Assembly (NCBI GenBank): GCA_010405405.1
Contig: MU004232.1
Span: 515,481 to 579,480, forward strand
DNA from: Microthyrium microscopicum
Taxonomy: Eukaryota
DNA length: 64,000 bases
Reading direction: 5' to 3'
Shown here: positions 23,944 to 63,018 of the stretch, piece after piece
Layout of the letters: every line of letters starts with the position of its first letter
How positions within the stretch are numbered: position 1 is the first letter of the stretch
The notes under the pieces: generated by a model
What the model was told of the DNA's origin: nothing
Seen by the model: only the letters and a program-made list of their open reading frames with translations
The model's database searches: none
Translations under genes and position numbers: made by a program

Positions 23944-24696
23944 CTACTTGCCCAAAGCTTCACGACGGAACGCCTTAGTAGCAGCACATAGCAAGGTGTC
24001 GTGTTTCTGTTCGAAGAACTCGACCAGGTCCCACTTCTTCGAGATTGGAGTGTCCTTACTAGTGAGGACACGAGCGGTTGCGGCAATGGCGTGTTGGTTG
24101 ATGCGGTCCCAATATGGCAAGCCACCCAGAACCTGTCCCAGTTCGTACTCTGAAAGAGCATGTCGATCGATATAGTCCTTTAGGATAACTTCGAATTGGC
24201 AGGAGAAGCGCTTCATGCGCAGCTTCTCAAAGGCTTGGTAGTAGTAGTAGAGCTTCAAGAAGCTGCTACGGGCAGGAATTACAAGCTTTGGCAAACATCG
24301 ACCAGGTGTAGAGGCGATTTCTTGGAACCAAGTCAAAATGTCTCGGATAGCCTCTTCCTTGAAACTCGAGATGGGAAGATACGCTTTGATGTTGGAGTAC
24401 TTGTCGTCGGTGACTTCTTCGATGGGGTACGTAATATCAAGAGCTGGTGCGTAACGTTCAAGTAGTCGAACTGAGAAGTGCTCGATAATTGTTATTTCCA
24501 ACTCGGGGCGATAGTCGGTGGCTGCTTTGGGCAGAACGATGTCGACGCATGGACCTTCAAGAATGTAATAGCGAACGCGATATTGGCTGATTTCGTTGAA
24601 CTTTGGCTCAAGGGTAATGCTCTGGTCGCAGCTAAAACGGGGTGCCCCTTTGGCGAGCACCATCGGGGCGGCTTTGCCTTTAGGAGCAGGGGTCAT
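23944..24696 (-). CDS. Cluster paralog 1: unknown protein with putative degenerate BTB/POZ-like domain, 250 aa
   Basis: Intact intronless ORF sharing EGPCVDIVL / LLERYAP / AIRDILTWF / YYYQAFEKL / ELGQVLGGL / TP-KKW-EFF-KH blocks with neighbouring ORFs. Confidence 0.8.
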   Translation of the reverse strand: MTPAPKGKAAPMVLAKGAPRFSCDQSITLEPKFNEISQYRVRYYILEGPCVDIVLPKAATDYRPELEITIIEHFSVRLLERYAPALDITYPIEEVTDDKYSNIKAYLPISSFKEEAIRDILTWFQEIASTPGRCLPKLVIPARSSFLKLYYYYQAFEKLRMKRFSCQFEVILKDYIDRHALSEYELGQVLGGLPYWDRINQHAIAATARVLTSKDTPISKKWDLVEFFEQKHDTLLCAATKAFRREALGK

Positions 24697-25913: not shown

Positions 25914-26642
25914 CTAAGTGCTCTCCTTCTCTTTCTCCACACGACGAACCTCGCGGATAGCACCATCCAGCAAAGATGGGTGTTTGGTCTCGAAGAATTC
26001 GATAAGCTCCAACTTCTTGGCCTTTGGAGTACGTGTGTCCTTCAGAACTAGAGCAGCTGAGGCAATGACATTCTGATTTAGACGATTCGAGTAGCGCAGA
26101 CCACCAAGTAGTTCTCCCAACTCCTGGACGGTAAGGGCATAGTGCTGCAGATAGCGGTTGAGGACATCCTCGAAGGGACGCGAGAATTGGCGCATAGATA
26201 GGGTCTCAAAGGCTCGGTAGTACTGGAAGAGTTTGAGAAAAGTACCACCGGGAATGGTCCACGATGGTATTGGTGCAGCAGGAGAGTTCGCAATTTGTGC
26301 AAACCAGTAGAGGATGTCTTCAATTGCATTACGATCAAAGCTTCCCGCCGGCAGAGTCAACCTACTTTGAGACGAAGTGACTGCGAAATTGGGCGCATAG
26401 CGCTTCAGCATAGCAATAGGGAACTGCATGATGATTGCACCATCACTTTCTTTAGAGTTATCGCCATCGGCTTTGGCAAGATGGATATCAACAAGGGGAC
26501 CTTTCTGGAAGGATTTTCGAAGATCATGGCGGTGTATATCCTTGAAGAGGGGATTGAGGGTAATGTTTTTCGTAAAGTTGGGAGGTGGTGAACCGACGGC
26601 AAGAACCTGAGGGACGAGCTTGGATGCTGAAGTGGAGGTCAT
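25914..26642 (-). CDS. Cluster paralog 2 (putative BTB-like), 242 aa
   Basis: Intact ORF: KGPLVDIHL, FPIAMLKRYAPNF, LTLPAGSFDRNAIEDILYWF, LFQYYRAFETL, ELGELLGGL, TPKAKKLELIEFF. Confidence 0.82.
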   Translation of the reverse strand: MTSTSASKLVPQVLAVGSPPPNFTKNITLNPLFKDIHRHDLRKSFQKGPLVDIHLAKADGDNSKESDGAIIMQFPIAMLKRYAPNFAVTSSQSRLTLPAGSFDRNAIEDILYWFAQIANSPAAPIPSWTIPGGTFLKLFQYYRAFETLSMRQFSRPFEDVLNRYLQHYALTVQELGELLGGLRYSNRLNQNVIASAALVLKDTRTPKAKKLELIEFFETKHPSLLDGAIREVRRVEKEKEST

Positions 26643-27699: not shown

Positions 27700-28100
27700 A
27701 GACCGCGCCACCGTTTGAAGGAACTCGCTGTAAAGTTATGAATGGTAAAAACGTAGTTGTCGATATACATGACCCAGGCGTGCTCGAAGCGGCTCGAAAA
27801 GTGGCGCCTTTTCAACACATTGAACACCTGGTAGTAGTAGACAGTTTCAGGGAACGGCTGCCACCAGAGACAACCAGCTTTGGGAGATAGCGTTCTGGCG
27901 TCGTCGAGCTGGGAGAACCAGACAAGGACATCTTGGATAGCTTGTTGCTAGAAGCTATTAGCTGGAGAATTGAGGTCTGAAATGGAGGTGATAGCACTGA
28001 GACGTGAGGCATAAGGTGAGAGGAGTTGTGCCAGAAGTTTCGATGATAATAAGTTTCGACGAGGGGAAGCATTATATATAGAACGAGGCAGTAGTGGAAC
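27700..28100 (-). pseudogene. Cluster paralog 3, decayed
   Basis: Fragments across three frames: ANSF*QQAIQDVLVWFSQL, TPERYLPKLVVSGGSRSLKL and YYYQVFNVLKRRHFSSRFEHAWVMYIDNY. TATA-like TTTATAG near 28307. Confidence 0.75.
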
Positions 28101-28833: not shown

Positions 28834-29577
28834 CTAGGGCTTATCTGCACCTTCACGAATGGCACGCTTTCGCTCCTTCTCGACGCGGCGAATGTCACGG
28901 ATGACACCACGTAGTAGAGTTGGATGCTCCTGGTCAAAGAACTTGACGCGATTCCACTTAGCGTCGACAGGTGTCTTCTCGCTAGTCATCACTCGGGTAG
29001 TTGCAGCAAGAATATGCTGGTTGAGAGGGTGAGTATAGCCGAGTCCATTCAGCACTTCTCCAAGCTCGTGAATTTGGAGAGCATGTTTGTTGACGTACCG
29101 ACGTAGAAGCTTTTCGAAAGAGATCGAGAAACGTCGCATGCCCAACATTTCGAACGCTTGGCAGTAATAGAACAAGGTTAGGAAGTCGCTACCAGCTGGG
29201 ACAATCAGCTTAGGTAGGTCTCTACCCGGGGCATTCACAATCTGCGTGAACCAGTCCAGGATGTTCTCGATGGCATATTGGTTGACATAATCAGAGGGAA
29301 GAGTTAGTGTCGACTGGGACAATGTGCCTGGGAAATGAGGCGCGTAGTGCTGGACAAAGCGGAGTGGAAGGTTCTCAGCAACGGTGACTTTGTGCGCTTC
29401 ATGTTTCTCGCTGGCCGAACGAGGTAGGGCGACCTGCACTTCAGAACCTTCTGCGAAGAACTTTCGAAGGTCGCGAGTATGTATCTTTGGGAAGGCCGGA
29501 TCGATGGCAATTTCTGTCGGGTACTTTGGAGCCTCTTGTCCTTTGGTGAGGACTTCGGGAACTTGAGCAGCGGTCAT
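28834..29577 (-). CDS. Cluster paralog 4 (putative BTB-like), 247 aa
   Basis: Intact ORF: EGSEVQVAL, LPLRFVQHYAPHF, LTLPSDYVNQYAIENILDWF, LFYYCQAFEML, ELGEVLNGL, TPVDAKWNRVKFF. Confidence 0.82.
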   Translation of the reverse strand: MTAAQVPEVLTKGQEAPKYPTEIAIDPAFPKIHTRDLRKFFAEGSEVQVALPRSASEKHEAHKVTVAENLPLRFVQHYAPHFPGTLSQSTLTLPSDYVNQYAIENILDWFTQIVNAPGRDLPKLIVPAGSDFLTLFYYCQAFEMLGMRRFSISFEKLLRRYVNKHALQIHELGEVLNGLGYTHPLNQHILAATTRVMTSEKTPVDAKWNRVKFFDQEHPTLLRGVIRDIRRVEKERKRAIREGADKP

Positions 29578-31329: not shown

Positions 31330-32000
31330 GTTGCCACGATATTGCCAGATTGTGAAGCGCATAGTACGGAAAGCCTTGTGCTCTTTCTCGAAGAGCCAAA
31401 ATAAGGCCACAGCTTTCTTCTCAGGAATAGTCTCGTCCGCAATGACTAGTTTGTAGCCTCAAGAGGGTTTTGGACTAGCGGATCGCCGTAAGGGAAAGCG
31501 GCCAGGACCTCGCGCAGCTCTGGAATAGTGAGAGCAAACTTCTCGACGTACTTGTTGATAATGGGTTCGAATTTTACCGCGACGCTTCATCGATAAAATA
31601 CTGAAGACCTGGTAGTAATGGAGGAGCTGAAAAAAAAGTAGCGTTGGTGATGGTGAACTGCGGCAGTGGAGCAGAGATGGTTGCGCAAATGTCCAACAAC
31701 CAGGGAGCAACGTCTCTCAACGCATGCCGCTGGACAGCACCGTTGGCAAGACGATTTTCTGCTGCTCAGGATAGTAGGATGCACCGACGGAGCGCAGTGA
31801 GACAACTCGCTCCAAGAGTTTGAGTGGGAAATTAGACAGAGTCTCGACGGCTCTATTGTGTTGGTTGGGATTGCCAGCTTCGATGACGAAGATAGTCCGT
31901 CACACGAGGATCCTCCAGAATTGAGGCAAGCACGGCAGCATTGTTGATCTATGGGAAGATGGGGTCAGGGGTAAGAGTGTTGGTATAGAGCTGCAGTCCG
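31330..32000 (-). pseudogene. Cluster paralog 6, near full-length but frameshifted
   Basis: Fragments TPDPIFP*IN...ILEDPRV, SNFPLKLLERV, HALRDVAPWLLDI, FQLLHYYQVFSILSM, FEPIINKYVEKFALTIPELREVLAAFPYGDPLV and IPEKKAVALFWLFEKEHKA. Closest to the 32877..33878 copy. Confidence 0.8.
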
Positions 32001-32876
32001 GCCCGGAGCTCAGGGGCAAGTTTGGTGATGAGATTGGAAGCCATTCGGAAAAAAGCTGGTTCAATTTCCAGAGAAAGCTCAACACCTTCTACTGCTGCTC
32101 GCGTTGTTTCTTGACCGCTTTACGGTGCGCCGCTGCAGCCTCCTGCACCGTAATCTGTCGATCAATGACAGCGGCATATGAATGGTCACAATGCATGAGT
32201 GCAAGATCTGGAGTAGTCGGATAGGAATGGAAAGACCAAAAGGAGCTCGTGGTCTGTACCATCTGGGCTTTGGATCATGAGAATATGATTGGATTTGATG
32301 CCATTTCATGATATGAGCATATAAAAAAGTCGTGGGCCAAAGGTCTGGAGCAGTGTGATGGGGAGGGAAGAGATCAGAATCCGCCTACATCATCCGGGTT
32401 CTAAATCGTGACAGTAAGATTGAATTTGAGGTCCTTGCAAGATATCAGCACATATAAATCCCATGGGATGAGACCAAGAGCAAGAAACGAAAAGAGAGGT
32501 TGATGCTAGATCAGCGAACACAACAAGTTATATAAAATCCATAATTCGAAGGGGAGTTTGTTTCTGAGGCCATCGGCAGAGCCAATTTTGATAATAGAGC
32601 TGAAAAATTGATGACTTATGCTAAGGCGAACAAGGAGCTCTTGGTATAGAAAGAAATGAAAAACTTAGGGGAAACTATAGAAAAGCAGTGAACAGGTAAA
32701 GATCTGTATTGAACGAACTACAACTTGAGAAACAATACTGACAGACCGTTTCTCACAGTGGGATATGACACACAAAATCGCATCAAAACGGCCTCTACCG
32801 GCACTTTCTGCACATCACTGGCCACGCTCTGCTCAGTCAATTTCAGCCCCGGCCAGTAGATCATCATGTCTACTGC

Positions 32877-33878
32877 CTAACGTTTGCGACGTGGTGGGCG
32901 TGGGTGTCGAGGGGCCTCCCGCTCTTCCTTGCGGCGACCACCATTTCGCTCACCAGAGCCATGACGAGGTGGACGAGCGTCTCGATCATCTTGATGCTGT
33001 GGTCGAGGGTCCCGTGCTTCTCGACGCTGCCCATTCTGTCCAGCGGCTTGATTGCGTTGCTGCTGGGCCTCGCGCTTCTCACGACGGTAGATATCCTGCT
33101 CCGTGAACTGCCATGCCTTCTCCATCTGGCGATGCGTTCGGATGGCATTGCGCAGCAACGAGTCGTGCTCGTGTTCGAAGAAGGCAATGATACCGTAGCG
33201 CTTTGCCTCTGGAGTGTTCTTGTCCAAGAGCACCATCTTTGTCGCCGAGATGACATGCTTGACCATATCATGCTCATAAGGGAAGGCACGGAGAGTGTCG
33301 CGAATCTCCTTGACCGTAAGCGCGTAGTAGGTGACGTACGCAACCATGATTGGCTCGAATATGGCCGCGAAGTCCGGCATGTACAAGGCCGAGAAGGTGT
33401 GGTAATACCCTAGAAGTTGACTGTAGTTCGTGCCAGCCTCGATTGTCAGCTTGGGTAGCTCCGCTCCGGTGGGTGTGTTGACGATTTCGATCAACCACTC
33501 GGCGATGGCGCCCATGGCGTGCTGGTTGACAGAGTTTAGCGGCAGCACGAGTTTCGATCCGCCATTGTTATTATGATGGGTGTATTGGAGGTCAGGAGCG
33601 ACCTTGTAAAGCATGGCGACTGGAAAATCTGGACAGAGGCTGATGTCTTTGGTAGTGGTGCTGTCTTTGATCGCTGTCTTGTCTCTTTTGTCCAAGACCG
33701 TGAGCATCAGGTCGGCGTGCGGGCCTTCGAGAATAGGGCAGCGGAAGGCGTCGCTGGTGAGTTTGGGCAACACAGGATCGGCAACAGGGTCGAGAATGAT
33801 CTCAACTTCGTAATTGCGAGGCTTGACGTCGAGACTCAGGACCTCTGGAGTCTCCGCGATCTCATGGCGGGAAGACAT
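32877..33878 (-). CDS. Cluster paralog 7 (putative BTB-like) with R/P/Q-rich basic disordered tail, 333 aa
   Basis: ILEGPHADLML, FPVAMLYKVAPDL, LVLPLNSVNQHAMGAIAEWL, LLGYYHTFSAL, TPEAKRYGIIAFFEHEH, then tail RREKREAQQQ...PRHPRPPRRKR. Confidence 0.82.
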   Translation of the reverse strand: MSSRHEIAETPEVLSLDVKPRNYEVEIILDPVADPVLPKLTSDAFRCPILEGPHADLMLTVLDKRDKTAIKDSTTTKDISLCPDFPVAMLYKVAPDLQYTHHNNNGGSKLVLPLNSVNQHAMGAIAEWLIEIVNTPTGAELPKLTIEAGTNYSQLLGYYHTFSALYMPDFAAIFEPIMVAYVTYYALTVKEIRDTLRAFPYEHDMVKHVISATKMVLLDKNTPEAKRYGIIAFFEHEHDSLLRNAIRTHRQMEKAWQFTEQDIYRREKREAQQQRNQAAGQNGQRREARDPRPQHQDDRDARPPRHGSGERNGGRRKEEREAPRHPRPPRRKR

Positions 33879-35035: not shown

Positions 35036-36277
35036 TCACAAACCCATCAAACTGTCCATTCCATCCTCTCCATCAGCGCCCCAAGAACTCGACCGCGATC
35101 TGTCAGTCGTATCATCCGAGTCCACTTCCCTAGCAAACGGCCCATCAGGCACATCCGTCAGCGCAATCAAATCCTCCTCATGACCCAGCAATCCCTCCAT
35201 CTCCTCCCCATCACCCAGCAATCCCTCAACTACCTCCCGATCCGTCATTTTGTGCGGAACAATCGGGCCCAGCTCATGGATCTCCTCCCGATTCAACTTC
35301 AGCGCACTCTTTCGAAAGTCAACATCATACTGCAACAAACTCATAAATCCATATGAATCATTATTTCGCAAATAATGTGCAATGGCTGCGAAAGGGACGT
35401 CGAGTGGCACCCGGAATGGCACTCCACTTGTCTTGCTGATTTCGCCCACTTCTCCGCCTTCTAAATCGTTTCCTCCGTTCAGATAGCTCGCTGTGCTCAG
35501 TATGCTCACTTCGTTTGCAGCGCTCGTCATCCCAAGATACGCCTGCTCCACCAGATTCTGCATCACACATTTCATCAGATAATGTTTCGATCCGAGGTGA
35601 GCATGCATATCTATGAACTGTTCTAGGGTCACAACCGTTTCCTCGATATGGCGTTTTAGGCGGGGCCAGATTTTTGCGACGGCGGTGGAGAGGTTGAGAT
35701 AGCGGAAGGTTATGTAGTAGTGGAAGAGGGTTGTCATGTCGGAGGCGTCGATCTGTAGACGCGTGGTGATGGGGGTGGTGGATCCACTTTGGGAGGATGT
35801 TTTGCAGATTTCCCAGAGCCAGAGGGCAATTACTTGGAAGGCGTGAAAGCTGACGCTTGGTGTGGAGAAGATGAGCTCGTGTGTGCTTTTTTTGAATTTC
35901 ACGTCTGCGCGGGACTTGATGACGGCGGTGGATAATTTTAGGCCGAAGGAGGTTTTGATGGTGGTGGATTTGGAGAGCATGACGGTCTTGATGATGGCGA
36001 TGGGATAGTCGGTGACCATTGTTTGTGTGTTTTTGGTTCTCTGGTGTTTGTTGTCGCCTATGGTTTGAAGGCAGATATTGACATAGTTGTGCTCGAGGAG
36101 CTGCGCGCGCTCATCATTGGAGAGACTGGCGAGAATTTCCGGTTCTTGGATTTCGATAGTGTCATTGGTTTCTAAGGGGTTGGTGTAGAGGTCGGCGGTT
36201 TGGCGCTGGATCGTTATGCAGTCTTCGCTGATTCTGTGGATGTAGCGACCCATAGACTGACCGAGGAAGGCAGCCAT
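35036..36277 (-). CDS. Cluster paralog 8, the most divergent (putative BTB-like), with acidic tail, 413 aa
   Basis: Long intact ORF. YVNICL, DYPIAIIKTV, LIFSTPSVSFHAFQVIALWLWEI and TLFHYYITFRYL align with the family blocks. D/E-rich C-terminus. Confidence 0.7.
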   Translation of the reverse strand: MAAFLGQSMGRYIHRISEDCITIQRQTADLYTNPLETNDTIEIQEPEILASLSNDERAQLLEHNYVNICLQTIGDNKHQRTKNTQTMVTDYPIAIIKTVMLSKSTTIKTSFGLKLSTAVIKSRADVKFKKSTHELIFSTPSVSFHAFQVIALWLWEICKTSSQSGSTTPITTRLQIDASDMTTLFHYYITFRYLNLSTAVAKIWPRLKRHIEETVVTLEQFIDMHAHLGSKHYLMKCVMQNLVEQAYLGMTSAANEVSILSTASYLNGGNDLEGGEVGEISKTSGVPFRVPLDVPFAAIAHYLRNNDSYGFMSLLQYDVDFRKSALKLNREEIHELGPIVPHKMTDREVVEGLLGDGEEMEGLLGHEEDLIALTDVPDGPFAREVDSDDTTDRSRSSSWGADGEDGMDSLMGL

Positions 36278-37326: not shown

Positions 37327-39708
37327 ATGACTACTCATTCCATTCTCAACAGCAAGTTCCCTGTAAATCTTCCACGTTTCGACCAACTGCTACTGTCCGA
37401 TGTCGATTTCGTGGAATACCTCGATGGGCTGAATACCAAACTCCAGGCTACTCGAGCCACCGATAAAGTCTCTGCATCTCTCTCCACCACAACTCTTGTC
37501 GATGCACCAGATAATCCACAGAAATCAGCTTTTATCGATGCCCTCCATGCCTCAAATTATCGCATCCACTCGAAAGAGTCACTGGCCGAGGACAACAAAA
37601 TGCTGACCGAGAATGCCGATGTTACCAATATTTCCTCCCAGGATGCTTTGGTAGACTTGTTCTACAAGCTGAACGATGCAGACAATTGCAAGGAGATCTT
37701 GGAGAGTGCTTGGAAGGTTGATTCCATGGCCACCGTCAAAATCATCTTCAACGCCCGATCCATCCATCTGGGTAAATCGAATCGAAACGCAACATACAAG
37801 GCTCTTGGATGGCTCTACCAAGAACATCCTATGACGTTCTTGTCAAATTTGCCGTTTCTGGTTCGTCCTGTCATCTCAAAACCGAAAAAGGAGCGGAAGA
37901 AGGAAAATGGCGATGACGCGAAAAAGGAGGGTAGTAAGGTGAAGAAAGAAGATGATAAGATGGATCTTGACGAGGATGATGATTTCGAGCTCGTTGTTCC
38001 ACCTGAGGGCTCTGCCTTTGACACGATGGCCCATGATCGCAAAAATGGTTGGGCTCACGGCTACTGGAAAGACTTGCTCAATATCCTAGCTCTGGCTGCA
38101 GAGGATAAGCTTGATCCAAACGCGGATCCGGATGACGTGCTGAACATCCAGAGTGCATTCATTCGTAAGAAAGTGCACCGCTCCAAGCAGCTGGACAATA
38201 AGCAACGAGAAGCTATCAAGAACCGAGTCTGGGATCAGAAGGAGGCCAAGAAGCTTCGTGAGCAGAAACGAGACTCTCAGCATGCCAAGGTTGTCAAGAA
38301 GCTGGAGGAAGATCATACTTACCGCGCATTACACTTGATCATTGCCCGACTCTTTGGCGCCCAGCTACGCCGCGACATGGCACTCCTCAACTCGTCCAAG
38401 GATAGTAACAAGGTCTCCTTAGCTGCGAAATGGGCGCCAACGGTGAAGGAGTCCCACGACAAAATCACCTTCATCGCCTCATCCATTGCCGAGTATCTAT
38501 TCAAACCCGAAGAAGCCTGCCCTGACGTCCCCGCGACAGACCGAACGGTATACCTCCAGCATGCGCGCGCCGCTTACCAGTTCAAGGTGCTGTCGCCCCT
38601 TCGCAAACAGCTTGATGTAGTCGAGCGCCACATCACCGCCGGCACCTTCGCCGATATTCGTTATGATCACGTCCCTTCCCTGGCAATGGACCGGCACTCG
38701 AAGCTCTTCTTCGCCAAAGATGAAGAAAACTTCATGACCTACCTCGACAAAGTCAGCGATGGCAAAGCAACCATGTCCGGCGCCGTGCTCCTGCCCTCCA
38801 CCATCATCGCCAAACTCTTGCGCCCTGAGGCAACTCCACATATCAGCAAAGGCATCCCCAAGGCCGCGCCGATAAAAGCAGTTCAAAACAAAGTCCTCGA
38901 TGGCCAATGGAACTCCCTCGTCCAGCGCATCCGCGAGTCCGGCAAACTCGAGAGTTCAATTGCGGTGTGTGATGTATCCGGTTCAATGGGCTGGCCAACC
39001 GCGAAAGATGGAAGCACGCCAATGGATTCTGCAATCGGTCTCTCCCTCCTCCTCGCTGAAGTCTGTGAACCTCCTTTTGGTGGCAACATGATTACTTTTT
39101 CTGAACGTCCTGCCATTATCAAAGTTGGTGGGCTTAGCGATACGCGCACGGTGGAGGAGAAGGCCAGATTCATCCAACGTAGTCCATGGGGCATGAACAC
39201 AGACTTCACCGCCGTCTTTGAGAAGTTGATTCTTCCCTTGGCTATCGAGCATAAGCTGAAACAAGAGGATATGGTGAAGCAAGTTTTCGTCTTCTCTGAC
39301 ATGCAGTTCGACCAAGCTACTGCAGGTCAGGCTCGCTGGTCAGGCTCGTTCGAACGTATTCAAACGGCGTACAAGGAGGCGGGGTATGAGATGCCTACCC
39401 TCATCTTCTGGAATCTTGCTTCTGGCGACAAAGGTGTGCCGGTGACCTCCGAGGAGCCTGGTACAGCGCTGGTGTCTGGATATTCGCAGGCGCAGATGAA
39501 AGTGTTCCTTGATGGTGGTGGATTTGAAGATCCGGCTGAAGAGGAGGAGGAGGAGGATGTGGAGGTCATAGTGACAAAGGATGGGGAGGATGTCACTATG
39601 GAAACGGCTGCACGAGCTGTGAAGGAGAAGAAGAAGATTGATCCGATTTCTGTAGTGAGAAAGGCAATTTCGCATGAGGGATATGCTATGTTGCGTGTGG
39701 CTGATTGA
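37327..39708 (+). CDS. DUF2828-family protein (TROVE/Ro60-like helical region plus C-terminal vWA domain), 793 aa, intronless
   Basis: LTENADVTNISSQDALVDLF, HGYWKDLLNIL, SLAAKWAP, YDHVPSLAM, MIDAS-like VCDVSGSM, WGMNTDF, FVFSDMQFD, FWNL and LVSGYS are the motifs I recall as typical of this family. Confidence 0.85.
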   Translation: MTTHSILNSKFPVNLPRFDQLLLSDVDFVEYLDGLNTKLQATRATDKVSASLSTTTLVDAPDNPQKSAFIDALHASNYRIHSKESLAEDNKMLTENADVTNISSQDALVDLFYKLNDADNCKEILESAWKVDSMATVKIIFNARSIHLGKSNRNATYKALGWLYQEHPMTFLSNLPFLVRPVISKPKKERKKENGDDAKKEGSKVKKEDDKMDLDEDDDFELVVPPEGSAFDTMAHDRKNGWAHGYWKDLLNILALAAEDKLDPNADPDDVLNIQSAFIRKKVHRSKQLDNKQREAIKNRVWDQKEAKKLREQKRDSQHAKVVKKLEEDHTYRALHLIIARLFGAQLRRDMALLNSSKDSNKVSLAAKWAPTVKESHDKITFIASSIAEYLFKPEEACPDVPATDRTVYLQHARAAYQFKVLSPLRKQLDVVERHITAGTFADIRYDHVPSLAMDRHSKLFFAKDEENFMTYLDKVSDGKATMSGAVLLPSTIIAKLLRPEATPHISKGIPKAAPIKAVQNKVLDGQWNSLVQRIRESGKLESSIAVCDVSGSMGWPTAKDGSTPMDSAIGLSLLLAEVCEPPFGGNMITFSERPAIIKVGGLSDTRTVEEKARFIQRSPWGMNTDFTAVFEKLILPLAIEHKLKQEDMVKQVFVFSDMQFDQATAGQARWSGSFERIQTAYKEAGYEMPTLIFWNLASGDKGVPVTSEEPGTALVSGYSQAQMKVFLDGGGFEDPAEEEEEEDVEVIVTKDGEDVTMETAARAVKEKKKIDPISVVRKAISHEGYAMLRVAD

Positions 39709-42700
39709 TTGTTAGCGGGGTTGGGTCGAAAATGGGAAAGAAAGTCGCAAAGCTGTAGTAAATATGGGTTATCTAAGAGGGAGAAAATGGATGCACGTTT
39801 CCCACTATCTGTTCTGATCTTTTTCTTCATTGCCATGCTCTGATCGTCTCTTCAATCCAGCAGGTAGTATTCAGCCTTGCTAGTCACGTGATTCAGCCTT
39901 ATGGTAGTCAACCTCATCGCACATGATGATCGCAGAAAACATCGAATGTTATGGCAAGTAGAAGAGACTCTTTTGGGTTTTCAAAGATTCAATGACAAGA
40001 TTGTGATACAATTCCGTTCGGAAACATGCCTAACATATGACTAAGAAGTTCAATGGCCAAAAAGACGTATCCTTCTCTGACATCAAAAGTTGTAAAAAGT
40101 TATATTGCAGTCCCAATATTTGATAATTACCTTGCCACTATCACCGCACAGCAGAAAAGCTTAAGCAAATGGGATTTAATAGTTACTCTAAACAATAGGC
40201 TATAGTTAGATTTATCTTATTCAAACTGGACCGACCACTCAAGCATTGGGTGAATACCTTGTTGTTCTCCATTCCCACTGCAGAACATCAACAACAACAA
40301 CATAAGAAAGTCTCGCCAAAACACATCAATATTCAATCCAAAAAATTGCAAAAAGTTCACCACACATCTGAGCGAAGCTCTAAGATGTGTGGTTATGAAA
40401 ATCAGTCGACTGATTTTACAGATGCAAACGGGGCTCGAACCAGGGAGCTTGTCCTTGGTTGTCACAGCCACTTCTTCGTTAGACTTGAGCGGGAGTTGTC
40501 TCTTAATTACGCATCGGGTTAGTGCTATCTGACTCGTTCGAGATTAGACATCAGATATTAACCGTCAAGTGCCACCCTTATTGACCTAAATGTTAGTAGA
40601 TGTTGGAAAATTTACATCTTTTTGTATGTATACTGCAGATGCGTAACCATGAATTGGTATGGCTATTGGCCAGAGAAATAAGGAGACTTAGCAAAACTCA
40701 ATTTAATATTCATTTCGAACTATGAGTCTGGATATATTGTAATTATTTAGCTTGCTATTGGTTTGACATTCAGAGACCAATTATTTTCTACTTGTGGCTT
40801 GTTCTTGTTGCCCCTTGGAGTCCACAATAGACTGTGACAACTGCGGCGGCAGTCATGATAATCTGCAGTGGAAGGCGACAAGAAATCCTATCTCCTCGAT
40901 TCCGACCCGTGGGCCCCAAAAGTGAGGTACCTTTTGAAAGGCTAAGGTAAGTCTTCTTCCATCCCTGGGGGCCCTGTGTGATTGTCTGAAAGAGCAATCA
41001 TATCACCGGCAAATCTAGTTGGCTTCTTTTTGTTTAAAGTAATTTGTTTGACCTGATCTTGATTTTATTCTTTTCCTTTCTCCTGGATCTTCTCCCGCCA
41101 GCGACTACTAGCGATCCAAAAAGCACTCTACCTTGGAAGAATCCATGACGTTTGTGCCCAATTCTCACTTTCTCTGTACATCAGATGCTGTGAGATTCTT
41201 GTCATTGCCCAAAGCATTGTTGGAAATACGACCGCAGGTAGAAACGCCAAAGCCATCTTGGAGGCAGTGTCAAGAGAAATGTCTCTCATACCTCTGGTCT
41301 TCTTAGCCTTGCTGTAGTAAACCAACCTGTCTTACAAGAAACTCAGTCTCGGCAATAGCATTCATACATAATCCAGCATCTGGTACCACTCTTGTCTTGC
41401 GCTGGACGATTGACTGCAGCTGATCGATGAAGCGCAATACAAGCGTCGTCTTGAAGTAAGCACGCGAAAGCTGTACAGAGTTGTCGAGTTGAGAGATTGA
41501 GACATGATATACTCTAGCAATTGGCGATCTCGCCCTGAGAACTGCCTGTTAGACCTCTTTTACCACTGCTGTTTCTCAAAATATTGCGAAGACAGTATCT
41601 CACTGTCAACAGAGCAGTTTTGGGATGACTATGAGCATCACTATCCTCTTATCGACACTTGTTCTGCCTGAACTTGAAGACGTTACTTCCAATATATATA
41701 TTCTTCCAATCTTCTCCGAGTTCCCCGAGCACTACACTCGAACCAACCGACCTCCTTCACGATACTCGCCATGTGCCGCAGTGTCTCTGATGAGCTACAG
41801 CGGAACTCTCAGAGATCCCCAGCTACTTTCAAGCTCCATGGAGCAGACGTACTTGACTTGACCTTTTGCGCCTTCCCCGAAAGCTATAGGAGGTCTATAT
41901 CGCAAGATCTCGAAAGGTGCCGAAGCAGCAGCGTGCTCATTGCCGCAAGGCAAGCACATTAGACGCTATAGAATCACCGGCGGAATCGTTCTTGCGCATC
42001 CTGCCTGCTCCACAGTGAGCATCTTTCCAAAGCTTCCTGTTACCTACGAATCCGTCAGACACTTGACGGCGTACTAGCGCATCTTCCCCGCCATAAGTGG
42101 TCGCCATCGGACGAGACACCCGCTATTCAATCCAAGCAATCTTGAGGTGCTGTCTCCAGCCATCACCCTTTCGGTTACATTGAGCAAGAAGAAGCCTTGC
42201 CGTGAGGCGGTGCTTGTACCAACATCCACCTTGCTAGACGATAGTCAGAACCTCCTTCCATGAAGCATCACGTAACGGCGCTAATGCATTCACCAGTATC
42301 TGAGGTTGGCTAGGCGCTCGGTGACTTTGTTCGCGGTGTCCTCAATGCGGCTCAAACCTTCGGCAAGGGAGTGAACAACTTCACTTCTGCCACCTATATA
42401 CATCAATGCTGCGCTAGCATATCCATCTTTCACCATGGCACCGTCACTGAGGCCAAGAATCTTGCTGTTCTCAATGGTATAAGATCTCTCGACCCAACCC
42501 GCTTATCAGTTCTTCTTCCTCCCTTTCCCACCATTCGAAACCCCAATCTCAACCTTGTCAGCAAAATCCACAACTGTCATCAAGCGTCCAACAGCTCTTT
42601 TCCGGTCACATCCTGAACAATCTCTTCACTTCCTCTCTTTCGAGTCTCAAGACTTGTCTCTCCACCTCCTCTTCAAGCTAACAAACAACTTCGCATCCTC

Positions 42701-42726
42701 CAAGTCTATTACATCGACCATTCGAA

Positions 42727-43896
42727 ATGACTTCCGTCCTGCCCGTTGTCGTCAATATTGCACCTGCGATTCAATACATTCACGACCCGAAGTTCCGGGA
42801 GGAACTTTGCAAGTCCCACAAGATAGACGTGTTCATCACTCTGGACAAGAAGGGAGACGAGTCAGACCCGCCAATCCTCCTGAAGGCGAAGGTGCCAAAA
42901 GCAGTTCTCGAGTCCATCGCACCTCGCCTGGTCAAGGATTCGATGGGAATCCAAGACGAGAAGTTGATGATTCCAGCAGGACTTGTTCATGTCCACGCCA
43001 TGAACTTCCTGCTAATTTGGTTTGTGGAACTCGTTCAAGTTCGCGAAGGCGAAAACCACAAACTTACTAGCTTGCCCATTACCTACCGCTGCTTCGACCA
43101 AATGCTCGCCAACTGGCGAACATTCCGCTATTTGGGGTTCCGCAAATGGGTAGTCCAGCTTGAGGAGCTAATGCTCGAATATCTCCAAGCCGTCGGACTT
43201 AACCTGAATCAAATGCAGGAGTTCCTGCTACATGCGCCGCCTTACGATGCGATGACCAAAGCATTCTTAGGAAAGACTGCTAAATTGCTCATTGACCCAA
43301 ACAGCCCCAAGGCCACGGTTGATCAGGTTGTTGAATTCTTCAAGACTAAGCAACGCAAATATCTGCACCGTCTAAACGAACTGCAAGCTGAGCTCGGTGA
43401 TGAGGAGGCAATCGCCCGTCTACGACAAAAGGAAAAGCGTCGTGAAAAGCGTCAGTGGATCTTGGATCATCCAAATAATTTGTGGAATCTGCTCAACAAC
43501 GGCCCTCGTAACAACAATGGCCCTCGTAACAACAACGGCCCTCGTAACAACAACGGCCCTCGTAACAACAACGGCCCTCGTAACAACAACGGCCCTCGTA
43601 ACAACAACGGCCCTCGTAACAACAATGGCCCTCGTAACAACAACGGCCCTCGTAACAACAATGGCCCTCGTAACAGCAATGGTCCTCATAATCACAATGA
43701 CCCTCATAACAACAACGGCCCTCATAACAACAACGGCCCTCATATCAACAACGGCCCTCATAACAACAATGGCCATCATAACCACAATGGACCTCATAAC
43801 AACAATGGCCATCATAACCACAATGGACCTCACAACAACAACAACGGTCATCATAACAACAATGGCCGCGTCGCTATGGGAGTGACTGCATTGTAA
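42727..43896 (+). CDS. Cluster paralog 9 (putative BTB-like) with C-terminal Asn/Gly/His-rich hexapeptide repeat, 389 aa
   Basis: KIDVFITL, VPKAVLESIAPRL, LMIPAGLVHVHAMNFLLIWFVEL, NWRTFRYL and SPKATVDQVVEFF match the family. They are followed by NNGPR plus 9 NNNGPR units and 10 NNNGPH/GHH-type units. Confidence 0.82.
   Translation: MTSVLPVVVNIAPAIQYIHDPKFREELCKSHKIDVFITLDKKGDESDPPILLKAKVPKAVLESIAPRLVKDSMGIQDEKLMIPAGLVHVHAMNFLLIWFVELVQVREGENHKLTSLPITYRCFDQMLANWRTFRYLGFRKWVVQLEELMLEYLQAVGLNLNQMQEFLLHAPPYDAMTKAFLGKTAKLLIDPNSPKATVDQVVEFFKTKQRKYLHRLNELQAELGDEEAIARLRQKEKRREKRQWILDHPNNLWNLLNNGPRNNNGPRNNNGPRNNNGPRNNNGPRNNNGPRNNNGPRNNNGPRNNNGPRNNNGPRNSNGPHNHNDPHNNNGPHNNNGPHINNGPHNNNGHHNHNGPHNNNGHHNHNGPHNNNNGHHNNNGRVAMGVTAL
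43495..43869 (+). repeat. Coding 18-bp minisatellite, about 20-21 units
   Basis: Ten GGCCCTCGT cores at 18-bp spacing (43501-43671, unit AACAACAA(C/T)GGCCCTCGT), grading into AACAACAACGGCCCTCAT/GGCCATCAT units. Confidence 0.95.
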
Positions 43897-44699
43897 CTTG
43901 TGGGTTAGGCGGGTTTGCGGAAAGCCAAGGGGGTTATTGGTGATCTAAGTGTGAGGATCAACTAGGGCAACGCCACGGGGAAGGTGTGACGATGGCCTTT
44001 TCGTAAGGCTAGAAGGAGATACCTGTGTACCTAACTGTTCTGTCTGACTTGGTTGTTCTTGCTCCTCTTTTGGCGTTGCAGACATCTTGACCGCCTTCGG
44101 TATTCTTCGAAGGTTTCAACTAAGAAGGGAGAGTTGTTGATGGAACGGCCGGAAAATAGCACACTGTTTATGCAATGGGTCGGTAGCAGATAGAATTCAT
44201 GATCTGCTTTCGAAAGTTGTTCCTTCCAGCCTGTTATTTTTTGGGACGCCCGAAACGCAATAAGACTAACTGACTTGAGATGTCTATTGATACAAAGATC
44301 AATTTTCTTTATGTACGACAAGCTTTTGGTCAGCTTGCTCTAACAACTTCTATGAAGTCTGCATTTCCATCTCCAGCGAGCTTTGACAAAAGCTTTTAAG
44401 CCGTGTCTCGACAGATGTTTGAACTGATGATGCGGCAACTTATGTTTGCTTTGGCTCGCCGAAAGAACGATACCTCAAGAGAATGAATCTCAACATTGCT
44501 TCAAGCAAATGGGTATGAACAGAATGCATCAACCGCTTGGAGCAAAAGTTGCTCCCGTTTTGAGTGACGCGGTGAAAGCATTGCGATTTTTTGCCGATGA
44601 GGATTGTGAATAGCCTGCTGGATACCACGCCCCTTTGATACCTTGATATTTGCTTGTGTTGAAAACAATTTACACTCTTTGATTGTCGCAAAACATTCA

Positions 44700-45349
44700 A
44701 TCAATACAGCTAAAAGGGTTAAATGATTTGAAATGAGTAGGATGCTAGTTGACAAAACATTGATTGCCATGGACACAAAGATGCTTCAACTTAAGCCTGA
44801 AGATGACCGTCAGAGACTCTCGCATCCAAAGAACTTCATGCTTCATACCTAGGTAGGTAGTTGTGTATGAACTTCAGCCGCATCTTGTCTGCCAGCTACT
44901 ATATACTTCTATTGCCGCACTCTTATATGCTCATATCACAAAATGCAAGTCCAAGGCTCATTCCCGTACATCTAGCCGCCCTCGCCGAGTATGATGCTTC
45001 CATTTCTCTGTGGCGTCTTCGACATGCGTTTCTTCCTGCGGTATGCGAAGCCTGATCATCGTCTCACAGAAATCGTGCTCCAAACTGCGACCGAAGTCCT
45101 AACCGACCCAAGCACTCCCAAGGAACGAATTACCGAGATCAATATTATCTTCCAGAAAGAACAACTCAATACATCTATCGACTGGCCTGCCTGGAAGCTG
45201 AAACTGGAGATGAAGGTGCTATTGCACGCCTTCGTGGAATCGACAAGCGTCGGGAGAAGCGTGAGCGAATCCTTGACCATCCCAACAACCTGTATAATCT
45301 GCTCAAGTTGGGCGAAACTAAGCGAAAAGGAAAGGGACCTCGAAGTTAG
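44700..45349 (+). pseudogene. Cluster paralog 10, decayed tandem copy of paralog 9 without the repeat
   Basis: TAT-EVLTDPSTPKERITEINIIFQ, a frameshift near 45160, then QYIYRLACLEAETGDEGAIARLRGIDKRREKRERILDHPNNLYNLLKLGETKRKGKGPRS* (TAG 45347-49). The 5' boundary is approximate. Confidence 0.8.
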
Positions 45350-46464: not shown

Positions 46465-48157
46465 CTAGGCGGGACACTGTTCCAACAGCAACTTGATGAA
46501 GGCTCCAAGCGGAGCAAATACAGGATCCTGAGCTCCTCTTCCGTCACAGAACTCAAGCGTTCCCTTGAAAATGCTCCGAACTTCAACGTCCATAGCTTTT
46601 GCCAACTTGGTTATGCACAGCGGACAAAACATCGCAGGTTTTGCGACGGTGTGATACATGTGAGATCCCTTTTGCATTAGACAAGCAAATGCTTCACAAT
46701 GTAGAATGCCAAAATTGTGCCCAAGCTCGTGCAGAACTAGCCGAATTGTACGGACTAACCACACACTCTCCATGTCTTCTGATCGGGGCCCAACCATGAG
46801 CGATGGCAGTTGACCTCTCTTGTGGATAGCTTGGGCGAGTGGGTGACTGCCAGCGTCGCTGAGACGTATCGTTGTTGTTGGCCATTGTTGTTCACATCCC
46901 CAATGATAATCGAGGCTTTTGACCAAGTTGCCATTGGGCCACTCGTCACGGTCTCTATTAATGTGATTGAAGTGATCAAGTCTGGGATCCAGTTGCGTAG
47001 TCGACACGACAGCTATTCGCGCTAAAGGATCACTGACCCCTAGAATACTATTGTGATTCCAGTGGAGAGCATGGTCGGTGATGAGTGTCAATTGAAAACA
47101 ATCATCCGGTACCATGGCACTCAATTTGCTGAGAATATCGTTTGCATCTAGAGCCACAGGGTACGGACCAGCAGGAGCTTGGATGTTGAGGAGCTGCACT
47201 GGCTGGTCGTTTCCTTTCTTGAGACCAACGTTGTTATTGTCAGCATCCATCAAGACAAGTTCTAGCGTCTCTTCGAATTCCATAATATTCATCCCGGAAA
47301 AGAGGAGTTTGAGAAATGCCAGAATGTCTTTCGTATCTGGAGCAGGAACGGTAGGTCCACGGCAAACTTTCGAGTCAGGTTGAGCATAATGACGAAGCAA
47401 GTCAGCGTTGAATGCTAAACGAGCTATGCAAATTTTCTTCCGCTTTGGAGTGACTTTCACACGAGATCTCAGGTTTTCCTAGTCCCTGAAATTCTGCACA
47501 TTGATAGTCTGATTTGCGGAATGATTGATATTGCATTTGTGGTTGTATTTGCCGCCTTCAGCATGGTCGGAACCGCGACCGAGTGGATCATCGTCAGGAT
47601 CATGATCCCAATGCGCAAAAGCGCCAGATGCGAGGTTTTGAAGATATACGGGACAATTTCCTGGCGGATTGGGGTACGTAAGAGGCTTGTCAAGAGGAGT
47701 ATCTGGAAGAGCCTGATCAAGGTTAGTACATGGAAAAAGGATTATCGGGACTCAAAGGGTTGACAAAATACATGGAATATTCCCATCAACTGCGATAATA
47801 CAATCCGTAGTTGATAGGAGCCTGTCATGTAATTTTTCCGGCATCTGCTCTTGTACGGTAGTAGTGAAAACGTACCAATGGAGCACAAAAGTACTTTCGT
47901 CCTAGAGCGCTTGAAGGGACTTCAACGTTTTCCTGCTCTTCTTCTTTTGCATTACAGTCCTCCCATTGGTCTGACATGAAATCTTCTCTCACGGACGGAT
48001 GGCTGCTGACACCGAATTGAATTCTTGGGTCGGTCTTCGCGGAGCTAAGTTTCGAGTCGCCAGGCGCAGGATCCGCGACTGTTGATTTGCTGTTTCGAGA
48101 ATCAAGAGGATCAGTAGAAACAGGGTGATCACCCACAGAGCCAGAAATAGGCTCCAT
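46465..48157 (-). pseudogene. Archaemetzincin-like (peptidase M54) zinc metalloprotease with a premature stop
   Basis: HELGHNFGILHCEAFACLM and FCPLCITKL match the archaemetzincin zinc and Cys motifs. The exon from 47712 reads QNFRD*ENLRSRVKVTPKRKKICI, with TAG at 47481-47479. The first exon (48157-47876) is tentative. Confidence 0.7.
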
Positions 48158-51198: not shown

Positions 51199-51899
51199 CT
51201 CGGAATTTCTATGAGAGATGCAAAAGGTTTCTGTCAGGATGATGAAGGATTGTAGACTCGAAAGCCTTTTAAGTAGTGAGAAGTAAAGAGTGGAAAGAGT
51301 CAGCCTTGAGTCGTCTGTTGTTATCTGTTGTGATGAAGAACATGCTAAGGGATTAGATAATCGCAGGACCTAATTAGGGATAACATAATCCCCTAATTAG
51401 CGTGTCCTAAAAACTATATTAGGCCCTTAGACTCCTATAGTAATTAACTATACTTTATTTCTTATATTCTTATAATATTTAATAGTAATAATTTAATTTA
51501 ATTAAGACCTCTAGATAATAAATCTCTTATAAGAATTTCTAGATTTATCTTATTATTAATAATTACTTAGGATTAATATCTAGTAAGATATACTCTAAGA
51601 ATATTATTCTTTAATTAGCTAGCTTTATTATAGCCTAATACTTAGTAACTATATATTAGGAAATAATTCTTAGAATTTATATATAATAATATTTCCTACT
51701 ATAATATATCTTAAAAATATCTTAAATTATCTTTAATTTAAACTATTACTTTAAGAATTATTAAATATATTATAAGAATTATTTCTCTTATAATAATATT
51801 CTCTTTATCTTTACTAACCTTTATTACGTTAATTATATAGCTATTAGATAGAATATAGGAACTTTTCTTTAGAAAATTCTTTAGGATAACGTTATAAAA

Positions 51900-54800
51900 A
51901 CTTTACTATATAGATTAAAGCTAATAAGTAATAATATAAACTCTTAGCCTTAGGTTATCTTAGGAAATTAGATTAAGATTTTATCTATACTAAGAAAGTA
52001 TAAAAATTTACTTTAGAATAATTTCTTAACTCTAGATTTTATTTAACTAACTTTAGTATAGAAACTTTTAGACTTTAAGACTCTTTCTCTACTTTACTAA
52101 GATTATACTCTTTATTAAAACTATTACTTTCTTTTACTAAAATAAATAACTAATATAATAATATTATAGTTTAAGCTATAGAATAAAATACTTAGTAAGT
52201 ATAATACTAAGCCTAAGTTATTAATCTAAATCTCTAAGATAAATAACTTATTCTTATATTATTAAATAACTTTTCTAGTATACTAAATCTTAGTTTTAAC
52301 CTTATAACTTAAGTTACTAATATTTAATAATTAGGGCTCTAAGCTCTAAACTATTTTACTAATATATATTAAGTTAATTCTTAGACTATTAACTATCTTT
52401 TTACTAAACTATAAACTTCCTCCTAGGCTTAAAAATATACTTTTAAGAGACTTAACTATATTCTTTAAGCTTATAACTAAACTTTCTAACGTAATAATAA
52501 TAGAAATTAGTAGTTTATAAATAAGCTTATTCTTTTTTAGGAAGTATTATTTTACTTTACTACTAATAAGTAAATTAAATAAGATTATAGCCCTAAACCT
52601 ATAAAGGACGTTTAATATACTTAGTAGTAAAAAATAGTAAATTATATTACTAAATTAACTTTTTACTTTAATATAAGTAAGTTTACTTTATATACTTAAG
52701 ATTACTAAGTAAATAAAATTAAGGCTTATACTTAAACTTAAACTTTAATTTAGAAAACTTTATAAATAAGTATTAGTTACTTAAACCTTATAGGAAAGCT
52801 AAGTAAGGAGTTAGATAAGATTATTAAATTACTCTTTTAAACTTTTAGTTCCTAAAAACTTATTAAAATAATAAGAAACGTTCTTTAAGAATAAAGATAA
52901 TATTTAACTAAGTTTAAAATGCCTCTTAATAGTTTATTCTTTAGGAAACTAAGTAAGTATAATATTTAGGCTAAGAACTTTCTTTATACTTTTAAGGCTA
53001 GTAAAGATATCCTTCTTTTAGATTCTACTCTATCTAAGTAGTAAAAAATTATTAAGGTTAAAGAATATCTTTCTATTAAGTAATATTTCCTATAGACTAA
53101 TTTAGCTTAGTAATAGATTATAGAGAAGTTTAAGATACTTAAAAGTTTATCTTACTTTTTTATCTACTTTTAACTTATATTTAGTATTAAGAAAGATATA
53201 CTTAAGGTTAGTATCTAGTAAAATTATATATTATAAGTTTTATTTACTAAGGAATTTATTTATTATCTTTATATTTTATAGACTTAAATAAATTTTATAC
53301 TTATTAATTATAAAATAAGTATCTAAATCTAAGAAAGCTTTAAAGAATAAGTTACTCTTAAAGCTAAGTATAAGTATAGTGCTATTCTTAACTCTATAGT
53401 TAATATTTTAGCTTTTAAATAAGAAATTATTAAATATAATATAGACTCTTATAAGAATATATGTAATACTTATAATACTTATAAGCTAAAGTAGCTTAAT
53501 AAAATCTTTTCTAGTTTTAAGGAAAATAAAGAGCTTATTCTAAATACTAATTCTAAGGAATATCTTAAAGAAATTAATAATAAAAGCTATATTAATAATA
53601 AGCTTAAGTTAGATAATAAAAATTTAGAGTAGCTTAATACTATAAATAGCTATAGTTACTATTCTAAAGAATAATATAATACTTAATACTTTAAGAAATT
53701 TAACTCTAATAAAAAGTTATAGCCCTCTTATAAAAAAGACTCTAAAAATAAGAAAGCTCTTATAAATAACTTTAAACTTAAGTACTAAAATTATAATAAA
53801 CTTAGCTATTATACTATAAATTATAAAAAGCCTAACTAGTAATAATAAGGTTTAAAAAACTATTATTACTAGAAAATAAATAAGAATCTTCTAGCTTAGA
53901 ATTAAAATACCTTACTTATTTATATAATAATTAATAAGCTTTTCTTAACTATATAAGTAAATATAATAATACTTTTTTATATTTACTTATTTACTTATAT
54001 TATAAAAATTATTCTATTAAGACTATAGCTTTCTTAGACTTAGAAGCTAACTTTATTTATATTAGTTAAAAGATTATTAGAAAACTTAAAGCTCTTATAA
54101 TACTTATCCTAAAGAAAGAAGTTACTTTTATAGATAGCTATATAATTATAACTTCTTTTAAGATTTACTTACCTTATTATATTAAGACCTTTTATAGCTA
54201 CTTTAAGGCTTATATCCTAGATATTTTTAATCTTAATATTATTTTTAGACTCTTATAGTTCTAGTTATATAATCTATAAATTAATTAAATAATAAGGTAA
54301 ATTAAGCTTATAAAATAACGCTTAGAAGGCTTATATACTTATAAGCTTACTATAGAATGCTAAGTAGAGCCTCTTTATAATAAGGAAAGCTACTTAGAAT
54401 AAATAGAGTAGTTTATAGCTAGCTCTCTTTATATAATCTTTTAAGTACTTTAAAATAAAATAAAAAGAGTAAGAGATAAAGTTAAGAGTATTCTTTAGCT
54501 AATTTATAAAATATAGGAATAGCCTAATATTCTCTTAATAACTAATAACCTTAATATTAATAAACTTACTCTAAAAGATAAAGATATATAAAAACTTTTA
54601 AATAATTATTATAAGTTCTTTTATTATATTCTTCCTAAACTTTCTTTATACTTTAAGTTTAATTATAAAATTTTTATAAGGAACGCTCCTCTTTATAACT
54701 AAGCTTATTATTAGATATCTAGCCTATAACTAAAAGAGTAAAAAAAGTAGATTTAAAAACTACTTACTAAAAGACTTATTAAAGTCTTAAAAAGTCCTTA

Positions 54801-57800: not shown

Positions 57801-58100
57801 TTCTATAGTACTATAAGATTTAGTAAAGAAAAAGAATAATAATATTTCTATTTCTCTAAATTAAAGCTTAGTAAGGGAGGAAATTCTCTTAGCTATAGTA
57901 AATTAAGAATTAATCTTTATATTACTAGAATAATAAGAATAGGAAAATAAATTATTAAGACTAAGGAGCTATAATAGGATTACTACCTTAATTACTTATA
58001 TACCTATACTAGAGGTAATAAATCTATATAAATAAGTATCTAATCCTAAAGAAGACTATTAAGGCATTAACTCTTTATTACTAGATACTATAAAAATAGA
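51900..58100 (+). mobile_element. Ty3/Gypsy LTR retrotransposon relic A (RIPed)
   Basis: Reverting C>T and G>A changes restores, in Gypsy order: gag CCHC knuckle near 53790, protease FLDSGA near 54030, RT (WRMCIDY near 54840, KTAF...MPFGL near 55015, YLDD near 55147), RNase H (DAS near 55620, NYPVHEKEL near 55725), integrase (WGIDLIG near 56525, PQSNGKVERFNG near 56800) and GPY near 57260. Boundaries approximate. Confidence 0.85.
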
Positions 58101-58299
58101 GGTTCTTTCTATAGATTACTCTATATTAAGGAGCTATAGATATAAGGAGTACAATCTAGATGTAGATATAATTTAAGAAAACTAAGATAGAGAATCTAGA
58201 AGAGGGATTAAGGCTAGTAGAAGATAAGCTCTATGCTAGCTAAACCTTAGGCGCTAAGCCCTTAGTATTACGTAATAAAGATACTAAAGATCTTATAAA

Positions 58300-62795: not shown

Positions 62796-63018
62796 CGAGC
62801 CCCCCTTTAAAATCAGTGCTCCTAAACTGAAACCTGCTCCTGCTTGCAAGAAGATCCTTTGAAAATTGACTGTGGAGTGGAAAACCTGCGGGAACCATGA
62901 AGACAGGTAAAAAACCACTCTTTTGTTGTTATTGTGAAGCCATCGAGACGTACCGTGGATTGCCGTGTTTTGCCGGAGATCTTCCGCTTGGACCAAAAAT
63001 TGAATTTTGGGAATCTGC

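Follow-up and report, generated by a model that had tools for sequence, protein, structure and literature searches.

In the dothideomycete Microthyrium microscopicum, the protein P0001 joins a BTB-like core to a long asparagine-rich hexapeptide repeat, and the locus raises the question of whether this tail is a prion, amyloid or condensate module or a by-product of repeat expansion. A sequence-only reading of the window (the whole 64,000-nucleotide stretch of DNA analysed) had proposed a self-assembling adaptor, possibly tuned by pH or metal through histidine. The gene is laid out as follows.

42727..43896, plus strand: P0001, single-exon ORF of 389 aa, divergent BTB-like core and repeat tail
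42727..43191, plus strand: BTB/POZ-like fold, residues about 1-155 (AF2 model, structure matches)
43192..43491, plus strand: predicted helical hairpins (3-box/BACK-like) and a long charged helix, residues about 156-255 (AF2 model)
43492..43671, plus strand: Arg zone, residues 256-315, 10 units of 18 bp (LNNGPR and nine NNNGPR), net charge +10
43672..43854, plus strand: His zone, residues 316-376, 10 more diverged units with 16 His
43855..43896, plus strand: partial last unit NNNGR, 8 unique, mostly hydrophobic residues and the stop

A BTB-like core

The ESM Atlas holds a sequence identical to P0001 letter for letter, which reflects a gene call and not expression. AF2 modelled the core with a pLDDT of 88, and the model has the N-terminal strand and helix of long-form BTB domains. 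Using the core as query, VIA-align returned BTB- or Skp1-fold chains, judged by title, as the best 19 of 50 rows with a top Z of 8.1; vaccinia A55 aligned over 175 residues with a Z of 8.0 and an rmsd of 4.9. Foldseek ranked BTB families first, with no row at E 0.001 or better, and the ESM Atlas feature match to the core was 0.94, to a cluster with 39% BTB. Because the Z values are middling, the BTB-like assignment rests on agreement among rows, and the AF2 model, ESM Atlas, Foldseek and VIA-align all back the BTB-type core that had been read from the sequence. Helices 160-222 align with BACK regions at an rmsd of 4-8, and likewise with unrelated helical bundles. Histone H2B, the only PDB sequence match to the family profile (E 0.016 or worse), was taken as a chance match.

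P0001 resembles the BTB-BACK Cul3 adaptors (KLHL3, KBTBD2/4, SPOP and vaccinia A55) in its predicted BTB fold followed by helical hairpins. Unlike them, it shows only about 10% identity, has no Pfam BTB match and lacks the phi-x-E motif, and their Kelch or MATH substrate domain is absent. Pfam BTB (PF00651) matched none of the 11 aligned family members and none of the 15 distant members scanned. The phi-x-E Cul3 motif, sought in the alpha3-beta4 loop by the criterion of PMC3616122, is missing from P0001 and occurs in 2 of 11 paralogs, at different alignment columns; cullins are encoded in the genome. Since this motif is missing, the core is best described as a BTB-like fold without the sequence mark of a Cul3 adaptor, and the label of adaptor is unproven. 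Long-form BTB domains are mostly dimers; a homodimer prediction for the P0001 core, in which the alignment was not used, scored 0.00 and weighs on neither side. A Pfam scan found no cell-death effector domain in P0001. Upstream of the ORF, a possible 5' intron can be read, by sequence only, at 42436-42704 (GTATAA at 42478, CTAAC at 42678, AG at 42703-42704), together with a short upstream ATG that is out of frame with P0001.

Structure of the repeat array

Positions 43492-43869 consist of hexapeptide units in frame with the ORF 42727-43896 (plus strand). The repeat is an 18-bp coding minisatellite at the 3' end of the P0001 ORF, with 10 xNNGPR units followed by 10 His-rich units. Units 2-10 of the Arg zone differ solely by AAC or AAT at the third Asn. 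The His-zone units read NSNGPH, NHNDPH, NNNGPH (twice), INNGPH, NNNGHH (twice), NHNGPH (twice) and NNNNGHH; units 16-19 form a 36-bp higher-order duplication, and one extra AAC in a single His-zone unit is the only length variant of the array. No stop or frameshift occurs across the 20 units, and the segment 43855..43896 ends the longest proline-free stretch of the tail (21 aa). Between 43495 and 43869 the tail has 125 residues (58 N, 20 G, 17 P, 16 H, 11 R and 3 others), so the two-zone tail of about 125 aa, with 10 GPR and 10 His-bearing units, is present in frame as the sequence-only reading described it.

Tandem Repeats Finder gave a period of 18, 19.4 copies, 90% matches and a score of 481, the best score among 100 codon shuffles of window 1-51000 being 73. 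Genome-wide, a two-unit repeat pattern matched 17 times, all inside the P0001 array; a looser pattern gave 11 matches, 10 in the array and one on another contig. The mean pairwise difference between units is 0.5 nt in the Arg zone versus 3.1 nt in the His zone, which agrees with the earlier proposal that the more homogeneous Arg zone is the more recently expanded, or homogenised, of the two. Other repeat frames (TTTALV, and the reverse strand) were set aside, since the constrained core runs on into the NNNGPR frame alone; the synonymy test by itself fails to separate the repeat reading frames.

A tandem family of divergent paralogs

A genome search with the P0001 core gave 13 matches including P0001 itself. 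Of the other 12, five are within the window, six belong to a second array some 70 kb downstream and one is on another contig; identity of the paralogs to P0001 is 19-31% in an 11-row alignment. P0001 is therefore one of a set of tandem, divergent paralogs in Microthyrium microscopicum. When 1.84 billion representatives were searched with the family profile, 28 proteins reached E 0.001 or better, of which 10 are aligned paralogs and the rest are distant. The window holds the following relatives.

44976..45349, plus strand: broken sister paralog, 5' part missing, frameshift near 45165-45170
23944..24696, minus strand: paralog, intact ORF without the repeat tail
25914..26642, minus strand: paralog, intact ORF without the repeat tail
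27735..28028, minus strand: degenerate paralog remnant, stop inside the match
28834..29577, minus strand: paralog, intact ORF without the repeat tail
31440..32032, minus strand: degenerate paralog remnants, several stops, weak matches (E 0.003-0.006)
32877..33878, minus strand: paralog with a long Arg/Pro-rich, non-repetitive, disordered basic tail (16 K/R in the last 45 aa)
35036..36277, minus strand: P0018, distant family member with an acidic tail

The tails of the paralogs are short and mostly basic, with one long and Arg-rich and three acidic or mixed; the paralog at 32877-33878 is a second case of tail extension in the family. The closest intact paralog, P0003, carries a small 21-bp repeat (2.7 copies, L029:8770-8826) in its charged C-terminal helix.

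Searches for P0001 beyond this family came back empty. No ortholog was found among 645 candidates from the core search, and none among 3173 candidates from the tail search; a search with the 28-row family profile gave two matches, both already known, and no ortholog. A metagenome scan returned no stretch with the repeat pattern and, with the core, 50 pattern matches of which none was confirmed, and the ESM Atlas had no usable match to the tail alone. Close to a distant family member, one Arg-rich ORF contains NGPR; it was dropped, as it does not match the family profile. Judged by titles, the literature gave no mention of the NNNGPR motif, and that on fungal BTB expansions nothing on the P0001 family.

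Several features of the genomic setting were recorded. Other BTB arrays exist in the genome, with 38 Pfam matches of which many are clustered. Each of the two BTB-like arrays on the P0001 contig adjoins a gene for an M54 (archaemetzincin-like) peptidase, at 46465-47478 in the window and at G000:C3:641586-642446, the latter judged by sequence only; this arrangement suggests an old segmental duplication. A gene with DUF2828 and DUF7788 (37330-39708) sits inside the BTB-like array of the window, between its minus- and plus-strand members. Dense 15-19-bp minisatellites on a AAATGCGCT core (L027:9053-9838 and L028:1-1832, C3 about 618500-621300) lie just before the second BTB-like array. The end of the window (51500-64000) is an AT-rich block with GC of about 0.19 and a strong RIP signature (TpA/ApT 1.69, (CpA+TpG)/(ApC+GpT) 0.03), which continues to about C3:587000.

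Origin and evolution of the repeat

A quick tree places the fragment at 44976-45349 as sister to P0001 (SH-aLRT 83). Across the 45 codons that precede the repeat, identity between these two genes is 76% at first, 84% at second and 38% at third codon positions, with 20 codons differing by synonymous changes only and 13 by amino-acid changes. This pattern indicates that the duplication is old and that the frame is protein-coding up to the first unit. The alignment of the two genes stops exactly at the repeat start, where the sister instead has a short basic tail with KRKGKGPRS as its last residues before the stop; the next relative ends in KKRNGNRRND. A basic GPR-containing end like that of the sister is a plausible seed of the repeat; the likeness is a single short motif, and the third positions of the two genes are close to saturation.

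A single base (CGT/CAT) separates units 13-14 of the array from the most frequent Arg unit, and the two commonest unit variants are both at CpG sites. With units one base off and duplications visible, the two-zone layout needs one point change and local duplication. RIP was rejected as the source of the unit variants, as the dinucleotide indices of P0001 are normal, unlike those of window 52000-62000. Among 11 distinct variants, counted after dropping the two junction changes of unit 1, 5 are synonymous versus 3.0 expected given the transition bias (p 0.15), and selection on the repeat is not demonstrable. Three of the six amino-acid changes create His, each from a different codon, compared with 5 of the 42 changes that are possible (p 0.026, post hoc); this is a weak hint of selection for His.

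Minisatellites are described in the available text of PMC3899988 as gaining whole units by slippage or recombination, faster in pure arrays. The coding minisatellites treated there share with the P0001 array a unit longer than 10 nt in a multiple of three, whole-unit gains and a pure block beside an impure one. Those with a function are, in the same text, mostly cell-surface adhesins, whereas the P0001 array ends an apparently intracellular BTB-like protein, in one paralog.

Composition of the tail and tests for prion and amyloid character

The tail was scored by composition only on the scale of PMC3654983 (cut-off 50 bits, at least 60 residues); the prion, propensity and stress-granule scores are our own re-implementations, with scales from yeast or synthetic polymers. 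It reached 66 bits at residues 257-316, a value to which the proline correction was not applied, its values being given only in a figure of that paper. The gross composition is in this sense prion-like, as had been claimed. One of 29 family proteins is over the cut-off, the best of the other 28 scoring -5.8, and none of 58 ORFs of at least 170 aa from 16 stretches (other BTB arrays and one distant family member) passes, the best being 21. Among the 29 proteins compared, the repeat tail is private to one gene, and together with the genome-wide pattern matches this confirms its earlier placement on one cluster member.

Like the yeast Q/N prion domains (Sup35, Ure2) and prion-like domains, the tail is very high in Asn (46%), of low complexity and predicted to be disordered; modelled alone by AF2 it is coil with a pLDDT of 47.6, a weak indication as a single sequence was used. 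Unlike them, it has no Gln, no aromatic residues, periodic Pro and Arg/His, and a negative measured propensity. F/I/V/Y/M/W account for 4 of its 134 residues (3%) and acidic residues for one; reported values are 11.9% for average yeast Q/N regions and 20.2% for Sup35. The measured prion scale, in the text available from PMC6059496 and PMC3930707, treats Asn as neutral, F, I, V, Y, M and W as promoting and Pro and charge as inhibiting. On the Toombs scale, the mean ln odds is -0.24 for the Arg zone and -0.18 for the His zone, the best smoothed window being -0.13. The PAPA cut-off is about +0.05. The stress-granule score of -0.135 falls on the side of the non-assembling domains on the scale of PMC7084078, the cut-off not being in the part of that paper seen. 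With no aromatic residue, a net positive charge and negative propensity and stress-granule scores, self-assembly by the tail alone, as in the sequence-only reading, is not supported.

That reading had doubted amyloid on account of the regular prolines, and this doubt is supported. Pro occurs at every sixth residue through residue 344, about three quarters of the tail, and added prolines in FUS are described in the available text of PMC12934744 as blocking cross-beta aggregation and not phase separation, which fits the stated preference for liquid over amyloid. The prolines by themselves are not enough to rule amyloid out, because the 2P+G values of the Arg zone (0.50), the His zone (0.36) and the last 44 residues (0.25) all lie below the 0.60 above which elastin-like chains avoid amyloid according to the accessible part of PMC7061623. 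The C-terminus has proline-free runs of 11, 11 and 21 residues and holds four of the six I/L/V/M of the tail; amyloid nucleation, if anything, would take place at this proline-poor end.

Fungal amyloid-signalling motifs (HET-s, PP/Ses_B, sigma) are C-terminal, N/G-rich and found in ascomycete hosts, as is the tail. In contrast to them, it lacks a profile match, a hydrophobic strand pattern and a linked NLR or cell-death effector, and it is a perfect polar repeat where they form a beta-arch of 20-40 residues. Profiles for the motif families as in PMC8086366, of which part was available (HET-s, Ses_B/PP, NACHT_sigma and RHIM), matched neither the whole of P0001 nor, at E up to 10, any of three pieces of its tail; weak matches are lost in the HMMER filters, and a profile search would miss new amyloid motif classes. 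The genome has at least 19 NACHT matches (44 candidates scored), and none of the 19 listed lies on the P0001 contig. A genome search with the HET-s profile gave no signal anywhere, controls included, and is uninformative. The analogy with HET-s-type signalling finds no motif match and no NACHT neighbour among those listed, and is not supported.

Two further repeat classes were compared. A collagen-like repeat was rejected, as Gly stands at every sixth and not every third position and the profile scores were 47 of 325 bits and 10.5 of 27.2. The P-X4-G period of resilin-like polymers is present in the Arg zone (P-R-N-N-N-G), and Pro+Gly is 33% in the Arg zone and 28% in the whole tail, the resilin-like criterion being above 30%. 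In the text available from PMC7794388, aromatic and zwitterionic residues are required for such P-X4-G polymers to undergo UCST separation, and the tail has neither the aromatic residues nor the zwitterionic pattern.

NNNGPR tails in Bacteroidota

Across 185,579 prokaryote genomes, the two-unit NNNGPR pattern occurred in 13 stretches, every one of them the C-terminal tail of a single Bacteroidota protein from one freshwater clade (L060-L072, e.g. L069:2458-3834, minus strand), with PSP1 in both proteins scanned for it and RicT in the one scanned. The available text of PMC10470536 describes Bacillus RicT as a partner of RNase Y in mRNA maturation. These tails are 66-87 aa long (N 35%, P 22%, G 19%, R 12%, no His) with 1-4 exact NNNGPR copies; they differ in order while composition holds, on cores that are 92-99% identical. 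The 13 tails represent one origin and not thirteen, and the NNNGPR grammar recurs on an RNA-linked protein. Like the P0001 tail, the RicT tails contain the NNNGPR hexapeptide, have a similar composition and follow a charged helix-like stretch; unlike it, they are irregular, shorter and without a His zone. Since the cores are unrelated, the two tails are convergent. On a viral contig (L073:1892-2947), a NNNNGP run is inserted in an otherwise enzyme-like ORF, which shows that NNNGPR-like runs arise also where no role is evident.

Weighing the explanations

The explanation best supported, with a probability of about 0.55, is that the tail is a slippage-born, disordered, cationic extension, tolerated or weakly RNA-binding and not self-assembling. 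A coding minisatellite would have grown at the 3' end of one divergent BTB-like gene, turning a short basic tail into a disordered, cationic chain of 125 residues that is free of aromatics. Its seed would be the basic GPR-containing end still present in the sister fragment, its growth would have gone through slippage or unequal exchange, and the uniform Arg block would be the latest expansion or homogenisation. The core would be a protein-binding BTB module like that of the tail-less paralogs. The tail would stay soluble without assembling and act at most as a flexible polycation, giving weak binding to RNA or an acidic partner or a bias in localisation, as the basic tails of the paralogs might, and would be tolerated rather than kept as a dedicated prion or pH switch. 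Some observations point the other way: 2P+G is below 0.60, His gains are slightly enriched and no stop or frameshift has entered the 20 units, and the persistence of NNNGPR tails of like composition in 13 RicT proteins may mean that the grammar is useful.

In a more tentative and rather unlikely alternative, selection would have kept the tail as a module for heterotypic condensates: several Arg blocks displayed on an oligomeric BTB core would form coacervates with RNA, and the His block would gate this by adding charge at low pH or cross-linking through Zn. The mostly dimeric state of long-form BTB domains, the P-X4-G periodicity as in resilin and the His enrichment among unit variants suit it, and protonation of His would raise the net charge per residue from 0.075 to 0.194. 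The hexapeptide is also found in tails of RicT, whose Bacillus counterpart partners RNase Y, and basic disordered motifs drive RNA-dependent condensation of Bacteroides Rho in the available text of PMC13269538. The same text has the N/Q-rich part of Rho as insufficient for RNA-elicited separation, and high N and P with few hydrophobic residues is, in what is available of PMC7084078, the mark of prion-like domains outside stress granules, the side on which the tail scores. Moreover, no paralog needs an NNNGPR-type tail, one base change accounts for the Arg and His zones, and the 13 RicT tails come from one close clade, lack His and have no established role. The broader proposal, that the Arg/His diblock condenses an oligomeric BTB scaffold on RNA under pH or zinc control and that the NNNGPR grammar arose twice, here and in RicT, as an unrecognised class of RNA-condensing tails, is quite improbable on the present evidence.

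A prion or amyloid-signalling domain, of yeast Q/N or HET-s-like type and with its likeliest nucleus in the proline-poor last 44 residues, is the least credible of the readings. The Asn content and the uncorrected 66 bits speak for it, as do the C-terminal proline-free runs with most of the I/L/V/M, the 2P+G values and the NACHT proteins of the genome. The terminal RVAMG of P0001 also bears a loose resemblance to the R-V-x-hydrophobic-G turn of HET-s. Against these stand a measured propensity that is negative everywhere in the tail, three tail pieces without a Pfam amyloid-motif match, a contig without any of the NACHT matches listed and a protein without a cell-death effector domain. Evenly scattered prolines and charges also disfavour prions, and the FUS prolines act in the same direction (PMC12934744, in the text available).

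It is also improbable that the repeat is not part of the protein as assembled, through a wrong copy number, splicing or a silent gene. Seven Arg units could have been collapsed or inflated by the assembler, as their identical runs exceed a 31-base word, but the His units all differ from one another and so cannot be an echo produced by the assembler. Four sequencing runs were compared with 41000-43490, a range that ends before the repeat: X1 may be the source run, X5 and X8 gave short pieces at a depth of about 2 and X7 gave none. A contig from a possible source run ends, by its length, about 33 bases past 43490, so that the array is not bridged there. The repeat is real, and the exact number of Arg units is predicted from the assembly only. 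Splicing of the array appears unlikely from its sequence: one CAG stands at the zone border (43674-43676), but the Arg zone has no GT words other than GTAACA, which makes a poor splice donor in fungi, and no CTRAY branch site occurs in 43441-43900. The neighbour at 44976-45349 is a broken gene, whereas P0001 shows coding constraint in the core up to the repeat and no RIP signature.

Meaning of the tail

A by-product of an expanding repeat is a likelier reading of the P0001 tail than a switch of prion or amyloid type. If the reading as a tolerated extension holds, the tail matters little in itself: it is a domain made by a minisatellite and flagged by prion-composition scanners, and the ancestral state without the tail can still be seen in the gene beside it. 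If the case for condensation and convergence were true, a fungal BTB protein and a bacterial RNA-processing factor would share an aromatic-free condensate grammar gated by pH or metal.
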